Source: a virus
Taxonomy: Duplodnaviria; Heunggongvirae; Uroviricota; Caudoviricetes
DNA length: 30,250 bases
Virus record (IMG/VR): IMGVR_UViG_2609459863_000015
Direction: 5' to 3' (one strand)
This document shows positions 2,065-30,250 of the stretch, piece after piece. The notes under the pieces are model-generated. The model searched no databases and was not told the DNA's origin. It worked only from the letters and a program-made list of their open reading frames with translations. Both the position numbers and the translations under genes were made by a program. Every line of letters begins with the position of its first letter. Position 1 is the first letter of the stretch.

Positions 2065-3147
2065 TTAGAACTGGTAAACCATACCTACAGCAACGATATC
2101 ATCGGTAGCAACGCCAGATGCTTTCGTGAAATCGCTCTTATCAATCAGGTTGATTTTGTAGTCAACAAAAGTGGACATATTTTTGTTGAAGTAATAGGTT
2201 GCACCTACATCAACATATTCAACCAGGTCCTGATCACCCCAAACACCCAAGTCTTTTCCTTTAGAATGCAGGTAAGCAACGGATGGACGCAGGCCGAAGT
2301 CGAACTGATATTGTGCAACAGCTTCGAAGTTTTGTGCTTTGTTGGCAATATGGTTATTACCAAAAACAGTCATGTTCTGGGTTTCAGAATAGGTGGTGGC
2401 CAGATAGATGTTGTTCGCATCATATTTCAGACCAGCTGCCCATACTTCAGCATTTTGACCAGAAGCATTCAGACCGTTGTTACCGTAGATAACCTGATTA
2501 TTAGTGCGATCAGATTTAGCATAGGTTGCACCCACGCCGAATCCTTCATACTCATAAGTAGTTGAGAAACCGAAACCATCGCCATTAGCTTCAGTTACTT
2601 CATTTCGGTCATTTTTGCCCTGATACTGAGCTGCAAAGTTCAGGCCATCAACCAGACCAAAGAAGTCGTTGTTACGATAAGTTGCAACACCTGTGGTGCG
2701 ACCAGTCATGAATACATCTGTTTGGGTCCAGGTATCGCCACCGAATTCTGGCAGAACGTCAGTCCACGCACCGATGTCGTATGCTACACCGTAGTTACGG
2801 CCGTAATCGATTGAGCCGTAGTCACCGAATTTCAGGCCTGCAAATGCAAGACGGGTTTTGTCTTTGGAGGAACCTTGAGATTCAGCGCGGTTGCCTTTGA
2901 ATTCATATTCCCACTGACCGAAACCAGTCAGTTGATCGTTGATTTGGGTTTCACCTTTGAAGCCAAGACGGGCATAAGTAGTATCACCATCATCTGCATC
3001 ATTAGAGGAGAAGTAGTGCTTAGCATTAACTTTCCCGTACAGATCCAGCTTGTTACTGTCTTTATTATAAATTTCAGCTGCCTGAGCAGACATCGCCATC
3101 AGTACTGATGCAGCTACAGCAGAAATTGCCACTGTTAATTTTTTCAT
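2065..3147 (-). CDS. nmpC: Outer-membrane porin, NmpC/Lc (OmpC family), phage-borne moron, apparently intact
   Basis: 360 aa with signal peptide [40 protein letters not shown]... and C-terminal ...VAVGMVYQF (terminal Phe typical of OMPs). Matches NmpC from memory. Opposite strand to the flanking Q and lysis genes. Confidence 0.88.
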
Positions 3148-5087: not shown

Positions 5088-5609
5088 ATGAATATCGTGC
5101 CACTTAATTACAAAGGTGAAATTGTCAGTTTCAACACTGATGGTTGGATCAACGTCACAGGTGTTGCTGAGAGATTTGGGAAACGCATTGATAACTGGAT
5201 GCGTTTGGCAGAAACGCTTGAATACGTTCGTGCTTTAGACGAAGCGTTGACCGGGAAAGAATCTCAAATTTTACATCCCTCACAATCGAGGTATGTAAAA
5301 ACCAGCAAGGCACGAAAGGACAGGGGTGGTGGTACGTGGCTACATCCAAAACTTTCAGTTGCATTTGCCCGTTGGTGTGATGCTCGTTTTGCTGTGTGGT
5401 GCGACCTGCACATTGATAGTCTGCTTCGCGGTGAACTGACTGAGCAGCAGAAATATGAGCAAGCATGTCGCATTCGCGATGACCGGAAATCAAAAGCCAG
5501 CAATGGGGCAAGAGAGATGGCTCGCTGGCGATGGGATAAGCCGGTTATTGAAGCAAATGTTGAGTACTGGCGCGAGCAACTGCAGTTGACTCTCGATATC
5601 GCGTGCTGA
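5088..5609 (+). CDS. KilA-N domain-like protein (putative DNA-binding, phage-associated); family assignment tentative
   Basis: 173 aa. N-terminal segment ...FNTDGWINVTGVAERFGKRIDNWMRLAETLEYVRAL... resembles the KilA-N / APSES-like fold; basic C-terminal half. Occupies the position that bor holds in lambda. Confidence 0.5.
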   Translation: MNIVPLNYKGEIVSFNTDGWINVTGVAERFGKRIDNWMRLAETLEYVRALDEALTGKESQILHPSQSRYVKTSKARKDRGGGTWLHPKLSVAFARWCDARFAVWCDLHIDSLLRGELTEQQKYEQACRIRDDRKSKASNGAREMARWRWDKPVIEANVEYWREQLQLTLDIAC

Positions 5610-5958: not shown

Positions 5959-6369
5959 TTAGTGCGGAAATATTTGTGTAGTGTTCTGAATGTTCTCAGT
6001 AAAGAGTAATGAATTATCAAAGGTATAGTAATACCTTTTGTTTTCGTGGATATTTGTAATCCATCTGAAAACCCCTGCTGTAGCAAGATTTTTCCTGTAT
6101 TCGTAAAATGATAACTCTCCTGATTTGAATCCTTTTAAGGTGGCTTCTATAAGGCATTTATTTTTTGAAAATCTTACATTTACAACCTTACCCTGTCCTT
6201 TTATTAAAACCGTATTATCGTTTTCAAGAACAAGATGAATATTCTCTGTAGCTAAATAGTAAATGTAATGTGAGACATTGTGACGTTTTAGTTCAGAATA
6301 AAACCAGTGATAGTTTAAATTATTTCGCACTTTATCGAATATTTGTTTAAAAATGGCAACCTGAGCCAT
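5959..6369 (-). CDS. ybcV: DUF1398-family protein (YbcV/YdfO-like), function unknown
   Basis: ORF 5959..6384; the likely start is the internal Met ([58 protein letters not shown]...) with AAGG upstream. Very AT-rich coding sequence. Resembles DLP12 YbcV and Qin YdfO from memory. Confidence 0.65.
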
Positions 6370-6425
6370 TGTAGTACCTTCCATGTGATATGAGGGGCGT
6401 AGTCTGCACGATTATCTAAATTGCT

Positions 6426-20986: not shown

Positions 20987-21730
20987 ATGACAGAGACAGA
21001 ATCAGCGATTCTGGCGCACGCCCGGCGATGTGCGCCAGCGGAGTCGTGCGGCTTCGTGGTGAGAACGCCGGAGGAGGAAAGATATTTTCCCTGCGTGAAT
21101 ATCTCCGGTGAGCCGGAGGAGTATTTCCGGATGTCGCCGGAGGACTGGCTGAGTGCAGAAATGCAGGGAGAGATTGTGGCGCTGGTCCACAGCCACCCCG
21201 GTGGTCTGCCCTGGCTGAGTGAGGCCGACCGGCGGCTGCAGGTACAGAGTGATTTGCCGTGGTGGCTGGTCTGCCGGGTGGCGATTCATAAATTCCGCTG
21301 TGTGCCGCATCTCACCGGGCGGCGCTTTGAGCACGGGGTAACGGACTGTTACACGCTGTTCCGGGACGCTTACCATCTGGCGGGAATTGAGATGCCGGAT
21401 TTTCATCGCGGGGATAACTGGTGGCGTCACGGTCAGAATCTCTATCTGGATAATCTGGAGGCCACAGGGCTGTATCAGGTGCCGTTGTCAGCGGCGCAGC
21501 CGGGCGATGTGCTGCTGTGCTGTTTTGGTTCATCGGTGCCGAATCATGCCGCCATTTACTGTGGTGATGGCGAGCTGCTGCACCATATTCCTGAACAACT
21601 GAGCAAACGAGAGAGGTATACCGACAAATGGCAGCGACGCACACACTCCCTCTGGCGTCACCGGGCATGGCGCGCATCTGCCTTTACGGGGATTTGCAAC
21701 GATTTGGCCGCCGCATCGACCTTCGTGTGA
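20987..21730 (+). CDS. K: Tail assembly protein K, full-length form (JAMM/MPN domain plus NlpC/P60-like domain)
   Basis: 247 aa. JAMM-like motif ALVHSHPGGLPWLSEAD and NlpC/P60-like catalytic Cys context HGVTDCYTLFRDAY. C-terminal part matches lambda gpK. Confidence 0.85.
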   Translation: MTETESAILAHARRCAPAESCGFVVRTPEEERYFPCVNISGEPEEYFRMSPEDWLSAEMQGEIVALVHSHPGGLPWLSEADRRLQVQSDLPWWLVCRVAIHKFRCVPHLTGRRFEHGVTDCYTLFRDAYHLAGIEMPDFHRGDNWWRHGQNLYLDNLEATGLYQVPLSAAQPGDVLLCCFGSSVPNHAAIYCGDGELLHHIPEQLSKRERYTDKWQRRTHSLWRHRAWRASAFTGICNDLAAASTFV

Positions 21731-22299
21731 AAACGGGGGCTGAAGCCATCCGCGCATTGGCCACACAGCTCCCGGTGTTTCGTCAGAAACTGAGCGACGG
21801 CTGGTATCAGGTACGGATTGCCGGGCGGGACGTCAGCACGTCCGGGTTAACGGCGCAGTTACATGAGACTCTGCCTGATGGCGCTGTGATTCATATTGTT
21901 CCCAGAGTCGCCGGGGCCAAGTCAGGTGGCGTATTCCAGATTGTCCTGGGGGCTGCCGCCATTGCCGGATCATTCTTTACCGCCGGAGCCACCCTTGCAG
22001 CATGGGGGGCAGCCATTGGGGCCGGTGGTATGACCGGCATCCTGTTTTCTCTCGGTGCCAGTATGGTGCTCGGTGGTGTGGCGCAGATGCTGGCACCGAA
22101 AGCCAGAACTCCCCGTACACAGACAACGGATAACGGCAAACAGAACACCTATTTCTCCTCACTGGATAACATGGTTGCCCAGGGCAATGTTCTGCCGGTT
22201 CTGTACGGTGAAATGCGCGTGGGGTCACGCGTGGTTTCTCAGGAGATCAGCACGGCAGACGAAGGGGACGGTGGTCAGGTTGTGGTGATTGGTCGCTGA
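21628..22299 (+). CDS. I: Tail assembly protein I
   Basis: 223 aa MAATHTLPLASPGMARICLYGDLQRFGRRIDLRVKTGAEAIRALATQLP..., Gly/Ala-rich hydrophobic central segment; lambda gpI. Overlaps the 3' end of K as in lambda. Confidence 0.88.
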   Translation: MAATHTLPLASPGMARICLYGDLQRFGRRIDLRVKTGAEAIRALATQLPVFRQKLSDGWYQVRIAGRDVSTSGLTAQLHETLPDGAVIHIVPRVAGAKSGGVFQIVLGAAAIAGSFFTAGATLAAWGAAIGAGGMTGILFSLGASMVLGGVAQMLAPKARTPRTQTTDNGKQNTYFSSLDNMVAQGNVLPVLYGEMRVGSRVVSQEISTADEGDGGQVVVIGR

Positions 22300-22359: not shown

Positions 22360-25300
22360 ATGGGTAAAGGCAGCAGTAAGGGGCATACCCCGCGCGAAGC
22401 GAAAGATAACCTGAAGTCCACGCAGCTGCTGAGTGTGATCGATGCCATCAGCGAAGGGCCGGTTGAAGGTCCGGTGGATGGATTAAAAAGCGTGCTGCTG
22501 AACAGTACGCCGGTGCTGGACAGTGAGGGGAATACCAATATATCCGGCGTCACGGTGGTGTTCCGGGCCGGTGAGCAGGAGCAGACACCGCCGGAGGGAT
22601 TTGAATCCTCCGGCTCCGAGACGGTGCTCGGTACAGAAGTGAAATATGACACGCCGATCACCCGGACCATCACGTCGGCAAACATTGACCGTCTGCGTTT
22701 TACTTTCGGCGTGCAGGCACTGGTGGAAACCACCTCAAAGGGGGACAGGAATCCATCGGAAGTCCGCCTGCTGGTTCAGATACAACGTAACGGTGGCTGG
22801 GTGACGGAAAAAGACATCACCATTAAGGGTAAAACCACTTCACAGTATCTGGCCTCGGTGGTGGTGGATAACCTGCCGCCGCGCCCGTTTAATATCCGGA
22901 TGCGCAGGATGACGCCGGACAGCACCACAGACCAGCTGCAGAACAAAACGCTCTGGTCGTCATACACCGAAATTATCGATGTGAAACAGTGCTACCCGAA
23001 CACGGCACTGGTCGGCGTGCAGGTGGACTCGGAGCAGTTCGGCAGCCAGCAGGTGAGCCGTAATTATCATCTGCGCGGGCGTATTCTGCAGGTGCCGTCG
23101 AATTATAACCCGCAGACGCGGCAATACAGCGGTATCTGGGACGGAACGTTTAAACCGGCATACAGCAACAACCCGGCCTGGTGTCTGTGGGATATGCTGA
23201 CCCATCCGCGCTACGGCATGGGGAAACGTCTTGGTGCGGTGGATGTGGATAAATGGGCGCTGTATCTTATCGGCCAGTACTGCGACCAGTCAGTGCCGGA
23301 CGGCTTTGGCGGCACGGAGCCGCGCATCACCTGTAATGCCTGGCTGACCACACAGCGTAAGGCGTGGGATGTGCTCAGTGATTTCTGCTCTGCGATGCGC
23401 TGTATGCCGGTATGGAACGGGCAGACGCTGACGTTCGTGCAGGACCGACCGTCGGATAAGGTGTGGACCTATAACCGCAGTAATGTGGTGATGCCGGATG
23501 ATGGTGCGCCGTTCCGCTACAGCTTCAGCGCCCTGAAGGACCGCCATAATGCCGTTGAGGTGAACTGGATTGACCCGAATAACGGCTGGGAGACGGCGAC
23601 AGAGCTTGTGGAGGACACGCAGGCCATTGCCCGTTACGGTCGTAACGTCACGAAGATGGATGCTTTTGGCTGTACCAGCCGGGGGCAGGCACACCGCGCC
23701 GGGCTGTGGCTGATTAAAACAGAACTGCTGGAAACGCAGACCGTGGACTTCAGCGTGGGTGCCGAAGGGCTTCGCCATGTACCGGGCGATGTCATTGAAA
23801 TCTGCGATGATGACTATGCCGGTATCCGCACCGGCGGGCGCGTGCTGGCGGTGAACAGCCAGACCCGGACGCTGACGCTCGACCGTGAAATCACGCTGCC
23901 ATCCTCCGGTACCACGCTGATAAGCCTGGTTGACGGAAGTGGTAATCCGGTCAGCGTGGAGGTTCAGTCCGTCACCGACGGCGTGAAGGTGAAAGTGAGC
24001 CGTGTTCCTGACGGCGTTGCTGAATACAGCGTATGGGGGCTGAAGCTGCCGACGTTGCGCCAGCGCCTGTTCCGCTGCGTGAGTATCCGTGAGAACGACG
24101 ACGGCACGTATGCCATCACCGCCGTGCAGCATGTACCGGAAAAAGAGGCCATCGTGGATAACGGGGCGCACTTTGACGGCGACCAGAGCGGCACGGTAAA
24201 TGGTGTCACGCCGCCAGCGGTGCAGCACCTGACCGCAGAAGTCACCGCAGACAGCGGGGAATACCAGGTGCTGGCGCGCTGGGACACGCCGAAGGTGGTG
24301 AAGGGCGTGAGCTTCCTGCTTCGCCTGACCGTGGCAGCGGATGACGGCCGTGAGCGGCTGGTCAGCACGGCCCGGACGACGGAAACCACTTACCGCTTCA
24401 CACAACTGGCTCTGGGGAACTACAGGCTGACAGTCCGGGCAGTAAATGCGTGGGGGCAGCAGGGCGATCCGGCGTCGGTATCGTTCCGGATTGCCGCACC
24501 GGCAGCGCCGTCGCGGATTGAGCTGACGCCGGGCTATTTTCAGATAACCGCCACGCCGCATCTTGCGGTTTATGACCCGACGGTACAGTTTGAGTTCTGG
24601 TTCTCGGAAAAACGGATTGCGGATATCAGGCAGGTTGAAACCAGCGCGCGTTATCTTGGTACGGCACTGTACTGGATAGCCGCCAGTATCAATATCAAAC
24701 CGGGCCATGATTATTATTTTTACGTTCGCAGTGTGAACACCGTTGGCAAATCGGCATTCGTGGAGGCTGTCGGTCAGCCGAGTGATGATGCATCAGGCTA
24801 TCTGGATTTTTTCAAAGGCGAGATAGGGAAAACCCATCTGGCTCAGGAGCTGTGGACGCAGATTGATAACGGTCAGCTTGCGCCTGACCTGACTGAAATC
24901 AGGACGTCCATAACGGATGTCAGCAATGAAATAACACAGACCGTCAATAAGAAACTGGAAGACCAGAGTGCAGCGATCCAGCAGATACAGAAGGTTCAGG
25001 TTGATACAAATAATAACCTGAACAGCATGTGGGCAGTGAAGCTGCAGCAGATGCAGGACGGACGCCTTTATATTGCGGGTATCGGTGCCGGTATTGAGAA
25101 CACCCCTGACGGCATGCAGAGTCAGGTGCTGCTGGCAGCAGACAGGATTGCGATGATTAATCCTGCGAATGGCAACACAAAGCCGATGTTTGTTGGTCAG
25201 GGCGATCAGATATTCATGAATGAAGTGTTCCTGAAACGCCTGACGGCCCCCACCATTACCAGCGGCGGTAATCCTCCGGCATTTTCCCTGACATCAGACG

Positions 25301-25857
25301 GGAGACTGACGGCGAAAAATGCGGATATCAGTGGCAGTGTGAATGCGAACTCAGGAACGCTCAACAATGTCACGATTAACCAGAACTGTACGATTAAGGG
25401 CATGCTGGAGGCGACCCAGGTCAGAGGAGATTTCGTTAAAGCTGTATCAAAAGCCTTCCCGAAAAAAGTCGGTACGTGGGGTAACACGGAAACACCAAAC
25501 GGTACGGTTACAGTCACCATCAGCGATGATCATAACTTTGACCGCCAGATTATTATTCCGCCCATTATTTTTAACGGTATAGCGTATGACGATCCGGGGA
25601 GCGGAAATAACCCAGGAGGCACGCGATACACGGGTTATGGTTTTGAAGTTCGCAAAAACGGCGTATTAATCGCATCCAGAGAAACTAAAGGGGCCATTCC
25701 CGGTAGTTACAGTGCAGTTATTGATATGCCGAGTGGCAGGGGAAGCGTCACTCTGGAGTTTAAGATTTTCCAGAAAGGCAATCAGGGGGCAGGCAATATC
25801 ACCGACTGTACGGTGATTGTGACCAAAAAAGCCGCTTCCGGCATCAGTATTCGTTGA
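22360..25857 (+). CDS. J: Tail tip / central tail fibre host-specificity protein J; C-terminal receptor-binding region divergent from lambda
   Basis: 1165 aa. N-terminal about 800 aa match lambda gpJ ([34 protein letters not shown]...). After ...[13 protein letters not shown] the sequence is mosaic relative to my memory of lambda J: conserved island [28 protein letters not shown]...[15 protein letters not shown], divergent distal end. Confidence 0.88.
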
Positions 25858-25879
25858 AATATTTATAACCCCAATAAAG

Positions 25880-25904
25880 GGCGTCAGGAATGACGCCTTT
25901 TTTA
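25880..25904 (+). terminator. Rho-independent terminator between J and lom
   Basis: GGCGTCA-GGAA-TGACGCC followed by TTTTTTATT. Confidence 0.55.
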
Positions 25905-25927
25905 TTGCAGAAAAGCGAGAGGTAATT

Positions 25928-26527
25928 ATGCGTAAAGTTTGTGCAGCAATTTTGTCCGCAGCCATTTGTCTGGCCGTATCCGGTGCGCCTGCATGGGCGT
26001 CTGAACATCAGTCCACGCTGAGCGCGGGGTATCTTCATGCCTCGACGAACGTCCCCGGCAGTGATGATCTGAACGGGATTAACGTGAAATACCGTTATGA
26101 GTTTACGGACACACTGGGGCTGGTGACGTCATTCAGCTATGCAGGAGACAAGAATCGCCAGCTGACCCGTTACAGCGATACCCGCTGGCATGAAGATTCC
26201 GTTCGTAACCGCTGGTTCAGCGTAATGGCGGGGCCGTCTGTGCGCGTAAATGAATGGTTCAGCGCGTATGCGATGGCGGGTGTAGCTTACAGCCGTGTGT
26301 CGACTTTCTCCGGGGATTATCTTCGCGTAACTGACAACAAGGGGAAAAAGCACGATGTGCTGACCGGAAGTGATGACGGTCGCCACAGCAACACGTCTCT
26401 GGCGTGGGGGGCTGGCGTGCAGTTTAACCCGACCGAATCCGTGGCCATTGATATTGCTTATGAAGGCTCCGGCAGTGGTGACTGGCGCACTGACGGTTTC
26501 ATCGTGGGTGTCGGTTATAAATTCTGA
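25928..26527 (+). CDS. lom: Lom outer-membrane protein (Ail/Lom/PagC family), moron
   Basis: 199 aa with signal peptide MRKVCAAILSAAICLAVSGAPAWA and C-terminal ...DGFIVGVGYKF; beta-barrel OMP family, lambda lom position. Confidence 0.85.
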   Translation: MRKVCAAILSAAICLAVSGAPAWASEHQSTLSAGYLHASTNVPGSDDLNGINVKYRYEFTDTLGLVTSFSYAGDKNRQLTRYSDTRWHEDSVRNRWFSVMAGPSVRVNEWFSAYAMAGVAYSRVSTFSGDYLRVTDNKGKKHDVLTGSDDGRHSNTSLAWGAGVQFNPTESVAIDIAYEGSGSGDWRTDGFIVGVGYKF

Positions 26528-26585: not shown

Positions 26586-29500
26586 GTGAATATGGCAGTA
26601 AAGATTTCAGGTGTACTGAAAGACGGCACAGGAAAACCGGTACAGAACTGCACAATCCAGCTGAAAGCAAAACGTAACAGCACCACGGTGGTGGTGAACA
26701 CGCTGGCCTCAGAAAATCCGGATGAAGCCGGGCGTTACAGCATGGACGTTGAGTACGGGCAGTACAGCGTTATTCTGTTGGTGGAGGGATTCCCGCCGTC
26801 ACATGCCGGGACCATCACCGTGTATGAAGATTCCCGACCCGGTACGCTGAATGATTTTCTCGGTGCCATGACGGAGGATGATGCCCGTCCTGAGGCACTG
26901 CGCCGTTTTGAACTGATGGTGGAAGAGGTGGCGCGTAACGCGTCCGCGGTGGCACAGAACACGGCAGCCGCGAAGAAGTCAGCCAGCGATGCCGGCACAT
27001 CAGCACGTGAGGCGGCAACCCATGCGACTGATGCTGCAGGCTCAGCACGCGCAGCCAGCACATCAGCCGGGCAGGCCGCGACGTCGGCTCAGTCAGCGTC
27101 TTCCAGCGCAGGAACGGCATCAACAAAGGCTACTGAAGCATCAAAAAGTGCTGCCGCTGCAGAGTCCTCAAAAAGCGCGGCAGCTACCAGTGCCGGTGCG
27201 GCGAAAACGTCAGAAACGAATGCGGCAGCGTCACAAAAATCTACAGCCACTTCTGCATCCGCAGCGACCACAAAGGCGTCAGAAGCTGCCACCTCAGCCC
27301 GGGATGCGGCGGCCTCAAAAGAGGCAGCGAAATCATCAGAAACGAACGCATCATCAAGCGCCAGTAGTGCCGCTTCCTCGGCAACGGCGGCAGGAAATTC
27401 CGCGAAGGCGGCAAAGACGTCTGAGACGAACGCCAGGTCTTCTGAAACGGCAGCGGGACAGAGTGCCTCAGCTGCGGCAGGCTCAAAAACAGCGGCTGCA
27501 TCATCTGCCAGTGCCGCCTCAACAAGTGCCGGGCAGGCCTCAGCCAGTGCCACCGCTGCCGGAAAGTCGGCAGAAAGTGCCGCCTCGTCTGCTTCAACAG
27601 CCACAACGAAGGCTGGCGAAGCCACTGAACAGGCCAGTGCAGCAGCGAGGTCTGCTTCCGCAGCGAAGACATCCGAGACGAACGCGAAAGCGTCGGAAAC
27701 CAGCGCAGAATCCTCAAAAACGGCTGCCGCATCGTCCGCCAGTTCGGCGGCTTCATCGGCATCATCGGCGTCAGCTTCAAAAGATGAGGCGACCAGACAG
27801 GCGTCAGCAGCGAAGGGCAGCGCCACGACAGCATCCACGAAGGCGACAGAGGCTGCTGGCAGTGCGACAGCGGCAGCACAGAGCAAAAGTACGGCAGAAA
27901 CCGCGGCAACGCGCGCCGAGACAGCGGCAAAACGGGCAGAGGATATTGCATCCGCCGTGGCGCTTGAGGATGCGAGCACGACGAAAAAGGGGATAGTCCA
28001 GCTCAGTAGTGCGACCAACAGCACTTCCGAGTCACAGGCGGCAACGCCAAAAGCCGTTAAGGCCGCGTATGACCTGGCTAACGGGAAATACACCGCACAG
28101 GATGCAACGACAGCACAGAAAGGGATAATCCAGTTAAGCAGCGCGACCAACAGCACGTCTGAAACGCTGGCGGCAACGCCAAAGGCAGTAAAAGCAGCCA
28201 ATGACAATGCTGAGAAACGTCTGCAGAAAGATCAGAACGGTGCGGATATCCCTGGCAAAGACACCTTTACGAAAAATATTGGTGCCTGCCGTGCCTTCGG
28301 TGGGTCAGTAAGCACAACAACAGGAAACTGGACGACTGCACAGTTTATCGAGTGGCTGGATTCTCAGGGAGCATTTAACCATCCCTACTGGATGTGCAAG
28401 GGGTCCTGGTCTTATGGCAATAATAAAATCATTACTGATACTGACTGCGGTAATATTCATCTCGCCGGAGCTGTCATTGAAGTAATGGGGATAAAGTCAG
28501 CGATGACGATCCGCATTACCACACCGACCACCTCCACTGGTGGTGGAACAACTAACGCCCAGTTTACCTATATTAATCACGGAACAGATTATTCACCTGG
28601 CTGGCGAAGGGACTATAACTCCAGAAATAAGCCAACGGCATCAGAGATCGGGGCGTTACCGTCAGGTGGAACAGCAGTATCATCAGTTAATCTGGCTTCA
28701 AAAGGTCGGGTAACCGCGCTGACAGACAATACGCAGGGGGCAGCAGGTCTTGAGTTATACGAGGTGTATAACAACGGATATCCAACAGCGTATGGAAATA
28801 TCATTCACCTGAAAGGGATGACAGCCGTTGGCGAAGGTGAGTTACTCATCGGCTGGAGGGGTACAAGCGGTGCTCATGCTCCGGCATTTATTCGTTCACG
28901 ACGGGATATGACCGACGCAAACTGGTCGCCGTGGGCGCAGCTTTACACCTCGGCTCATCCTCCTGCAGAGTTTTATCCAGTCGGTGCACCAATCCCGTGG
29001 CCATCAGATACCGTTCCGTCTGGTTATGCCCTGATGCAGGGGCAGACTTTTGACAAATCTGCTTACCCGAAACTTGCAGCCGCTTATCCGTCAGGCGTGA
29101 TCCCTGATATGCGTGGCTGGACGATTAAGGGCAAGCCCGCCAGTGGTCGTGCCGTATTGTCTCAGGAACAGGATGGCATTAAATCGCATACCCACAGCGC
29201 CAGCGCATCCAGTACGGATTTGGGGACGAAAACCACATCATCTTTTGATTACGGCACTAAATCCACGAATAACACTGGTGCACATACCCATAGTATTAGC
29301 GGGACAGCAAATAGTGCCGGTGCGCACCAACACAAGAGTTCCGGTGCATTTGGTGGCACGAACACGAGCATTTTTCCTAATGGTTATACTGCGATTTCAA
29401 ATCTAAGCGCGGGGATTATGAGCACAACAAGCGGTAGTGGCCAGACTCGTAATGCAGGGAAGACATCATCAGATGGTGCTCATACCCACTCGCTGTCCGG

Positions 29501-29666
29501 CACTGCTGCAAGCGCAGGCGCACATGCACATACTGTCGGTATTGGTGCTCATACGCACTCCGTTGCGATTGGCTCACATGGACATACCATCACCGTTAAC
29601 GCTGCGGGTAACGCGGAAAACACCGTCAAAAACATCGCATTTAACTATATTGTGAGGCTTGCATAA
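26586..29666 (+). CDS. stf: Side tail fibre protein Stf, intact, with extended Ala/Ser/Thr-rich repeat region and His-rich (HxH) C-terminal receptor-binding domain
   Basis: 1026 aa. N-terminus [39 protein letters not shown]... matches lambda Stf. Central low-complexity repeats (AAKTSETNA..., about 26940..27960), duplicated [27 protein letters not shown] fibre-repeat motifs, and GAHTHS / GAHAH / GSHGH motifs near the C-terminus. Confidence 0.85.
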
Positions 29667-30250
29667 TGGCATTCAGAATGAGTGAACAACCACGGACCAT
29701 AAAAATTTATAATCTGCTGGCCGGAACTAATGAATTTATTGGTGAAGGTGATGCATATATTCCGTCTCATACAGGTCTGCCAGCAAACAGTACCGATATT
29801 GCACCGCCGGATATTCCGGCAGGCTTCGTGGCTGTTTTCAACAGTGATGAGGCATCGTGGCATCTCGTTGAAGACCATCGGGGTAAAACGGTTTATGACG
29901 TGGCTTCCGGCGACGCGTTATTTATTTCTGAACTCGGTCCGTTACCGGAAAATGTTACCTGGTTGTCGCCGGGAGGGGAATATCAGAAGTGGAACGGCAC
30001 AGCCTGGGTGAAAGATGCAGAAGCAGAAAAACTGTTCCGGATCCGGGAGGCGGAAGAAACAAAAAACAGCCTGATGCAGGTAGCCAGTGAGCATATTGCG
30101 CCGCTTCAGGATGCTGCAGATCTGGAAATTGCAACGGAGGAAGAAACCTCGTTGCTGGAAGCCTGGAAGAAGTATCGGGTGTTGCTGAACCGTGTTAATA
30201 CAACAACTGCACCGGATATTGAATGGCCAACAGTACCCATTATCGAATAG
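29666..30250 (+). CDS. tfa: Tail fibre assembly protein Tfa
   Basis: 194 aa [79 protein letters not shown]...; lambda Tfa-like. Start overlaps the stf stop (TAATG). Stop codon is at the very end of the window. Confidence 0.88.

Follow-up and report, generated by a model that had tools for sequence, protein, structure and literature searches.

We analysed a window of 30,250 nucleotides from a tailed phage (Caudoviricetes, IMG/VR record IMGVR_UViG_2609459863_000015; "the window" denotes this whole stretch) and, within it, the gene for the tail tip attachment and central tail fibre protein J. The gene occupies 22360..25857 on the plus strand, as do all J segments given below, and was delimited by its open reading frame (ORF) and its match to the lambda_TipJ family: it encodes an intact protein of 1165 amino acids (aa). 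The distal third of this J is a mosaic of two divergent modules that assort independently in nature. The proximal one (aa 821-950) consists of a long helical shaft and an upper β-prism, the distal one (aa 1006-1165) is a receptor-binding domain of the phage 434 type, and a conserved island forms the junction between them. We consider it quite likely that the distal third was assembled from these exchangeable modules by homologous recombination and that OmpC is the most probable receptor of the distal one.

The mosaic became visible in a global protein alignment with lambda J (NC_001416 15505-18903). This was the check proposed by an earlier interpretation of the letters alone, the sequence-only reading, which had claimed that J tracks lambda over its first two thirds, departs, returns to a conserved island and diverges again to the end. 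The alignment gave precisely this pattern. Residues 1-820 (22360..24819), comprising the hub domains and two FNIII/Ig domains, share 799/820 residues (97%) with lambda J at a nucleotide identity of 0.95-0.96, and this part matches residues 1-836 of PDB 8iyk. Identity then dropped to 38% over aa 821-950 (24820..25209; 49/130 residues), where the protein has 28 extra residues in gap blocks of 21 and 7. It rose to 93% in the island, aa 951-1005 (25210..25374; 51/55 residues), and fell once more to about 40% over the last 160 aa (aa 1006-1165, 25375..25854; 62/166 over aligned columns), which diverge up to the end, so that the C-terminus is not essentially identical to that of lambda. In Fisher's exact tests, stem and receptor-binding domain differed from the N-terminus with p-values of 2e-62 and 3e-74, respectively, and each of them differed from the island with p < 1e-12. 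All peptides quoted in the earlier interpretation were found in J, and the limits it gave were exact: 24820 opens codon 821, the first residue past ...YLDFFKG, and the stop codon ends with 25857.

On the DNA level, identity to lambda fell at about 24840, returned at about 25200 and fell again at about 25350. These changes were abrupt, from about 95% to 50-65% inside tens of bases. Codon usage at conserved residues followed the same blocks: codon identity to lambda was 0.80 in the island versus 0.36-0.45 in the flanking blocks. When lambda and 434 were both taken as references, the values were 0.80-0.84 for the island and 0.33-0.48 for the divergent flanks, with the exception of the 434-type domain, which reached 0.96 against 434. 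The codons shared with lambda indicate that the island DNA was recently shared, and not merely constrained at the protein level.

The independent pairing of the divergent blocks was observed among 120 protein clusters obtained by a search with the last 353 aa of J. The two blocks combine freely. The long shaft is found with the 434-type domain, as in the J of the window, and with an A8-type domain that is 100% identical to the A8 domain; the lambda shaft is found with the 434-type domain in 434 itself and in many prophages; and a third type of shaft (58-60% identical) is found with the 434-type domain as well.

These data also bear on the question whether the divergence could have arisen without any exchange of modules, mainly by point mutations accumulated under diversifying selection in one lineage. 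Receptor-binding proteins are classic targets of diversifying selection, and substitutions within the 434 type do cluster at a limited set of positions. The sharp breakpoints, the low synonymous codon identity in the divergent blocks as opposed to 0.80 in the island (against lambda) and 0.96 in the domain (against 434), the different combinations of the same blocks in other phages and the 28 residues inserted in the shaft relative to lambda all contradict such a history, which we regard as highly improbable and have rejected. The recombination mosaic postulated by the sequence-only reading thus held. Its further proposal of a host-range module needs a refinement: there are two separate modules, and only the distal one, aa 1006-1165, is a known determinant of specificity.

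The island corresponds to the lower prism. Its 55 residues are identical to those of lambda and of 434 at 51 positions, with a nucleotide identity of 0.90-0.92, and across the 120 clusters its identity ranged from 71 to 100%. Judged by these features, its DNA has the appearance expected of a site of homologous crossover. Residue 992 (25333..25335), the counterpart of lambda aa 964, falls within the island, at the DNA breakpoint; lambda aa 964 is the fusion point of OmpC-specific lambda chimeras (PMC11338833). The island furthermore contains F952 (25213..25215), the counterpart of lambda F924. Mutation of F924 in lambda J allows escape from the Gifsy-1 abortive-infection nuclease HepS (PMC13043305). 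Since the phenylalanine is kept, the J of the window is predicted to trigger HepS. A structure deposited as 'J tail tip' (PDB 9oik) matches J aa 897-961.

The distal module (25375..25857 including the stop codon) was assigned by its match to 434 J. It is an Ig-like domain with 155/160 residues identical to 434 over its whole length, no gaps and a nucleotide identity of 97%. The five differences, at J positions 1047, 1127, 1136, 1138 and 1143, all fall on sites that vary within 81 clusters of 434-type domains. Similarity to the LamB-binding domain of lambda (lambda J aa 978-1132) was far lower, with about 40% identity and several indels, and similarity to the A8-type domain (PDB 9wcb) amounted to 44% identity over 157-168 aa. 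The A8 domain sequence used for comparison was rebuilt from the HMMER alignment of PDB 9wca. A8 gpJ (PDB 9wca/9wcb) is an engineered OmpC binder from a private strain collection; among natural E. coli J proteins, clusters P0095-P0120 carry a domain 97-100% identical to that of A8 gpJ, attached to the long-shaft module that the J of the window has too. An AlphaFold2 model was computed for a monomer of aa 813-1165, the native protein being an intertwined trimer. In this model the receptor-binding domain was predicted to be all-beta with local confidence scores (pLDDT) of 73-94 per 10-residue block, and the best Foldseek hits were the central fibres of lambda and A8 gpJ (8xck, 9wca, 8xcj, 9wcb).

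The similarity to 434 does not end with J. In 30-base windows, the J-lom spacer and most of lom (25858..26450, plus strand) showed identities of 0.83-1.00 to 434 almost throughout, compared with 0.27-0.83 to lambda; from about 26453 onwards, the three sequences become alike again. The lom allele was here inherited together with the receptor-binding domain.

What does this domain recognize? The sequence-only reading had suggested a receptor other than that of lambda, or another LamB allele. The former part of this suggestion is strengthened by the last 160 aa, which are 97% identical to the domain of 434, a phage reported to use OmpC. Indeed, the reported receptor of phage 434 is OmpC and not LamB, and lambda binds to OmpC once it carries the J region of 434 (PMC3509688; PMC11101478). 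Grafts of natural gpJ C-termini at lambda aa 964 are sufficient to switch delivery from LamB to OmpC (PMC11338833), and a structure of one such grafted domain with OmpC exists (9wcb). In the mEp collection of lambdoid phages, FhuA is the most frequent receptor and OmpC comes second (PMC11893012, citing Hernandez-Sanchez 2008); two members of this collection, mEp332 and mEp460, carry the 434-type domain. From this homology we predict, with good confidence, that the J of the window depends on OmpC.

Several points weigh against this reading. A literature search on Kati, PhiR42_1, ev243, mEp332 and phiSTEC1575-Stx2k found no receptor data for these phages. In the record of the hybrid lambda h434 imm21, 434 DNA extends from the C-terminal part of J to beyond stf and tfa; because the hybrid carries 434 stf and tfa too, the classical h434 genetics cannot tell the contribution of the J domain from that of the side fibre. 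Lambda J is known to acquire OmpF as a new receptor by a few substitutions (cited in PMC11101478), and the five differences from 434 could in principle change the OmpC alleles accepted or the porin used. The A8 and 1A2 domains, which both bind OmpC, do not accept all OmpC alleles alike (PMC11338833), and 'OmpC' may be too coarse a label for the receptor. As to the structure, the AlphaFold2 model is that of a monomer of a trimeric protein, and its prism region had a pLDDT below 50 and is unreliable. The function of the longer shaft is a matter of conjecture.

Taken together, the five substitutions, the gain of OmpF use by few point mutations in lambda J (discussed in PMC11101478), the different OmpC alleles accepted by A8 and 1A2 (PMC11338833) and the side fibre genes included in the h434 genetics would speak for a 434-type domain that recognizes another porin here (e.g. 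OmpF, PhoE, an NmpC/Lc-type porin or a LamB allele) or only some alleles of OmpC. Set against this are the 97% identity without indels to the 434 domain, the fact that all five differences are common polymorphisms within the 434 type, the reported OmpC receptor of 434 (PMC3509688) and the second rank of OmpC among the mEp phages (PMC11893012), of which mEp332 and mEp460 carry the domain. We therefore judge another porin, or such a restriction to certain alleles, to be rather unlikely and retain OmpC as the predicted receptor.

The window itself encodes a porin of 359 aa (2065..3147, minus strand; Pfam Porin_1, NCBIfam OmpC subfamily), between the genes for the antiterminator Q and the holin. 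Its identity to the Lc porin of phage PA-2 is 90.4%, and the 'OmpD' of phages ev099 and ev243 matches it at 100%; in phage 434 the gene is interrupted by IS5. The receptor of PA-2 is OmpC, and in PA-2 lysogens the Lc porin takes the place of OmpC. A prophage that combines such a porin with an OmpC-type J could thus protect its host from superinfection. We considered whether an Lc/NmpC-type porin might serve as a marker for an OmpC-type J and discarded this idea: at least 13 phage records combine such a porin with the 434-type domain, but phages with a different domain, e.g. 4A7, have it as well.

The proximal module is of a different nature. Its first part is a variant of the alpha-helical shaft (aa 821-900, 24820..25059), 28 residues longer than that of lambda and 37% identical to it over 52 alignable residues. 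No Pfam model matches aa 819-871, and AlphaFold2 predicted helices at aa 815-889 with a pLDDT of 55-71. The AHS domain of lambda gpJ (PMC11101478) is the counterpart of this shaft. The second part is the upper beta-sheet prism, or central straight fibre (aa 901-950, 25060..25209), situated inside Pfam Phage_Tail_Tip; 30/50 of its residues are identical to lambda and to 434, with a nucleotide identity of 0.65, and in the majority of the 120 clusters it accompanies the long shaft. Residues 821-950 differ from 434 as much as from lambda (24-60% identity to 434). The 28 extra residues correspond to four heptads, by which the shaft would be about 4 nm longer if fully helical. As a structural variant, the proximal module is common among E. 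coli prophages and is tied to no one receptor-binding domain. It is conceivable, if doubtful, that the long shaft constitutes a second functional module, setting the reach of the central fibre or the threshold of its trigger, or that, together with the upper prism, it diversifies to escape host defences that sense J. The latter idea comes from HepS, which senses the neighbouring region around lambda F924. If it were true, the evolution of lambdoid tail tips would have been shaped by immune evasion as well as by the choice of receptor. A possible function proper to this shaft and upper-prism module is the sole point of our analysis with some novelty.

How ordinary the two modules are was seen in a census of 5426 complete E. 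coli genomes, counted at a coverage of at least 80% of the query. The 434-type domain was present in 2091 genomes, the long-shaft module in 3555 (median of two copies per genome with any) and the short shaft of lambda in 2637. The LamB-binding domain of lambda was found in only 96, all with an identity of at least 99%, and the three records listed were laboratory strains. From these counts it follows that the 'divergent' J is the natural norm and lambda the exception. The exact 1038 bases of 24820..25857 recur with 100% identity in at least 25 complete genomes, including O104:H4 outbreak isolates and an enterotoxigenic E. coli (ETEC) strain, and with at least 99% identity in 526 records, where they are annotated as gpJ. 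Among phages, 74 records contain the 434-type domain, including Stx1a, Stx2a, Stx2c and Stx2d phages, cdtI, 2851 and mEp460. The 160-aa domain is identical in nine phage records, including those of the plaque-forming phages Kati, PhiR42_1, mEp332 and ev243, and in Kati the C-terminal 353 aa of J are identical as a whole.

In lambda, four distal loops of the receptor-binding domain enter the lumen of LamB, and on binding the three domains spread, the prism twists, the shaft flips and the tip is opened (PMC11101478). If the solved lambda-LamB and A8-OmpC complexes are taken as a guide, the J of the window would act as a trimeric tail-tip and central-fibre protein, in which module 1 (aa 821-950) supplies the longer helical shaft and the upper β-prism, and module 2 (aa 1006-1165, with DNA extending into lom) the 434-type domain, both joined by the conserved lower prism (aa 951-1005). 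Island DNA that is near-identical in different phages would provide the crossover site. The distal loops of the three receptor-binding domains would dock on a trimeric porin, most probably OmpC rather than LamB; the domains would then spread apart and the prism would twist, upon which the helical shaft would flip and the tail tip open for ejection of the DNA. Of this scheme, our data show that J is a mosaic, what its modules are, that they assort independently and how abundant they are; that it is specific for OmpC, or that the longer shaft has any effect on function, is inferred.

That mosaic exchange of the J C-terminus underlies lambdoid host range is established, and the present allele is already many times in databases. 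Indeed, the modular J C-terminus is textbook lambdoid biology, and lambda hybrids with the host range of 434 have been in use for decades. What our data correct is the perspective: among natural E. coli prophages this J is ordinary and laboratory lambda is the outlier. For annotation pipelines and host-range predictors this means that aa 821-950 and aa 1006-1165 should be treated separately and the receptor be predicted from the second segment only. Lambda particles for gene delivery in the gut have already been directed to OmpC by way of this same junction.

The J of the window is a member of the lambda TipJ family and displays every defining feature that could be checked. It matched NCBIfam NF049904 lambda_TipJ over its full length (1-1165 on 1-1163/1163) with 2335 bits, the cutoff being 1950. 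The 1163 positions of this model are near the 1165 aa of the long-shaft form and not the 1132 of lambda. In Pfam, the order was FNIII-A_GpJ (aa 86-207), Phage-tail_3 (330-498), Ig_J (610-714), Ig_J_second (716-818), Phage_Tail_Tip (872-1000) and Ig_GpJ_C (1029-1164), and the succession of hub, two FNIII/Ig domains, helical shaft, beta-prism and C-terminal Ig-like receptor-binding domain is that expected for TipJ. As in lambda, J lies between I (21628..22299) and lom (25928..26527, plus strand; Pfam Ail_Lom, 1e-122), which is followed by stf (26586..29666, plus strand; 1026 aa) and tfa (29666..30250), running past the end of the window. The identities of lom, stf and tfa were confirmed by Pfam. 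The tail operon has the lambda-type order H-M-L-K-I-J-lom-stf-tfa, and the order of ORFs agrees with the annotations of lambda and PhiR42_1. PhiR42_1 is the closest deposited phage, with 97.4% identity over 97% of window positions 5300-30250. The window as a whole is the late region of a lambda-type prophage, starting with genes for RusA, Q, the minus-strand porin, holin, lysozyme and Rz and continuing after the lysis genes with nu1 to FII, Z to H, M, L, K, I, J, lom, stf and tfa.

This gene complement is also informative as to whether J stems from a decayed prophage and its variant C-terminus is non-functional. Such an origin might be suspected from the many fragmentary J proteins in the retrieved collection and from the median of two shaft-module copies per E. 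coli genome, some of them surely in defective prophages. The ORF, however, is of full length and matches lambda_TipJ from end to end, none of the head, tail, lom, stf and tfa genes around it is missing, and the domain occurs in complete phage genomes that were deposited with a named host (K-12 MG1655, ECOR13, E. coli). A pseudogene is therefore extremely improbable, and we rejected it in favor of an intact, mosaic J.

Outside J, two accessory genes typical of this prophage group lie between the lysis genes and nu1: one encodes a KilA-N domain protein (173 aa; 5088..5609, plus strand), the other a DUF1398 (YbcV-like) protein (140 aa; 5959..6384, minus strand). Stf, with its 1026 aa, has a lambda-like N-terminus (phage_tail_N) followed by a long Ala/Ser-rich stretch of low complexity at about aa 130-460, then two Phage_fiber_2 repeats, a Collar domain and a His-rich, repetitive C-terminus. 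Stf of 434 has only 437 aa.

Several known systems come close to the J of the window. Phage 434 J (OL657226, UMO75286.1; 1137 aa; the classical 'h434' host range) is 97-99% identical to it in the hub and FNIII part and nearly identical in the last 160 aa, and the 434-like DNA also covers the spacer and most of lom. It is lambda-like up to about aa 940-975 and has the short shaft and upper prism of lambda, whereas the J of the window has the long-shaft module. Lambda gpJ (NP_040600; PDB 8iyk, 8xck and, with LamB, 8xcj) belongs to the same family, with the same domain order and genomic position and presumably the same trigger mechanism, but its shaft is 28 residues shorter and its receptor-binding domain, only about 40% identical, binds LamB. 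In the A8 gpJ chimera (PMC11338833; PDB 9wca and, with OmpC of EDL933, 9wcb), a natural non-lambda C-terminus was fused within the conserved island. It has the same Ig-like fold and matches the J of the window with 333 bits in HMMER, and in nature its domain sits on the same long-shaft module. The domain itself, however, is only 44% identical to that of the window and represents a different domain type for the same porin. Kati, PhiR42_1, ev243, mEp332, phiSTEC1575-Stx2k and many E. coli prophages, finally, carry the same allele, the DNA of the whole J gene being 96.8-98.3% identical.

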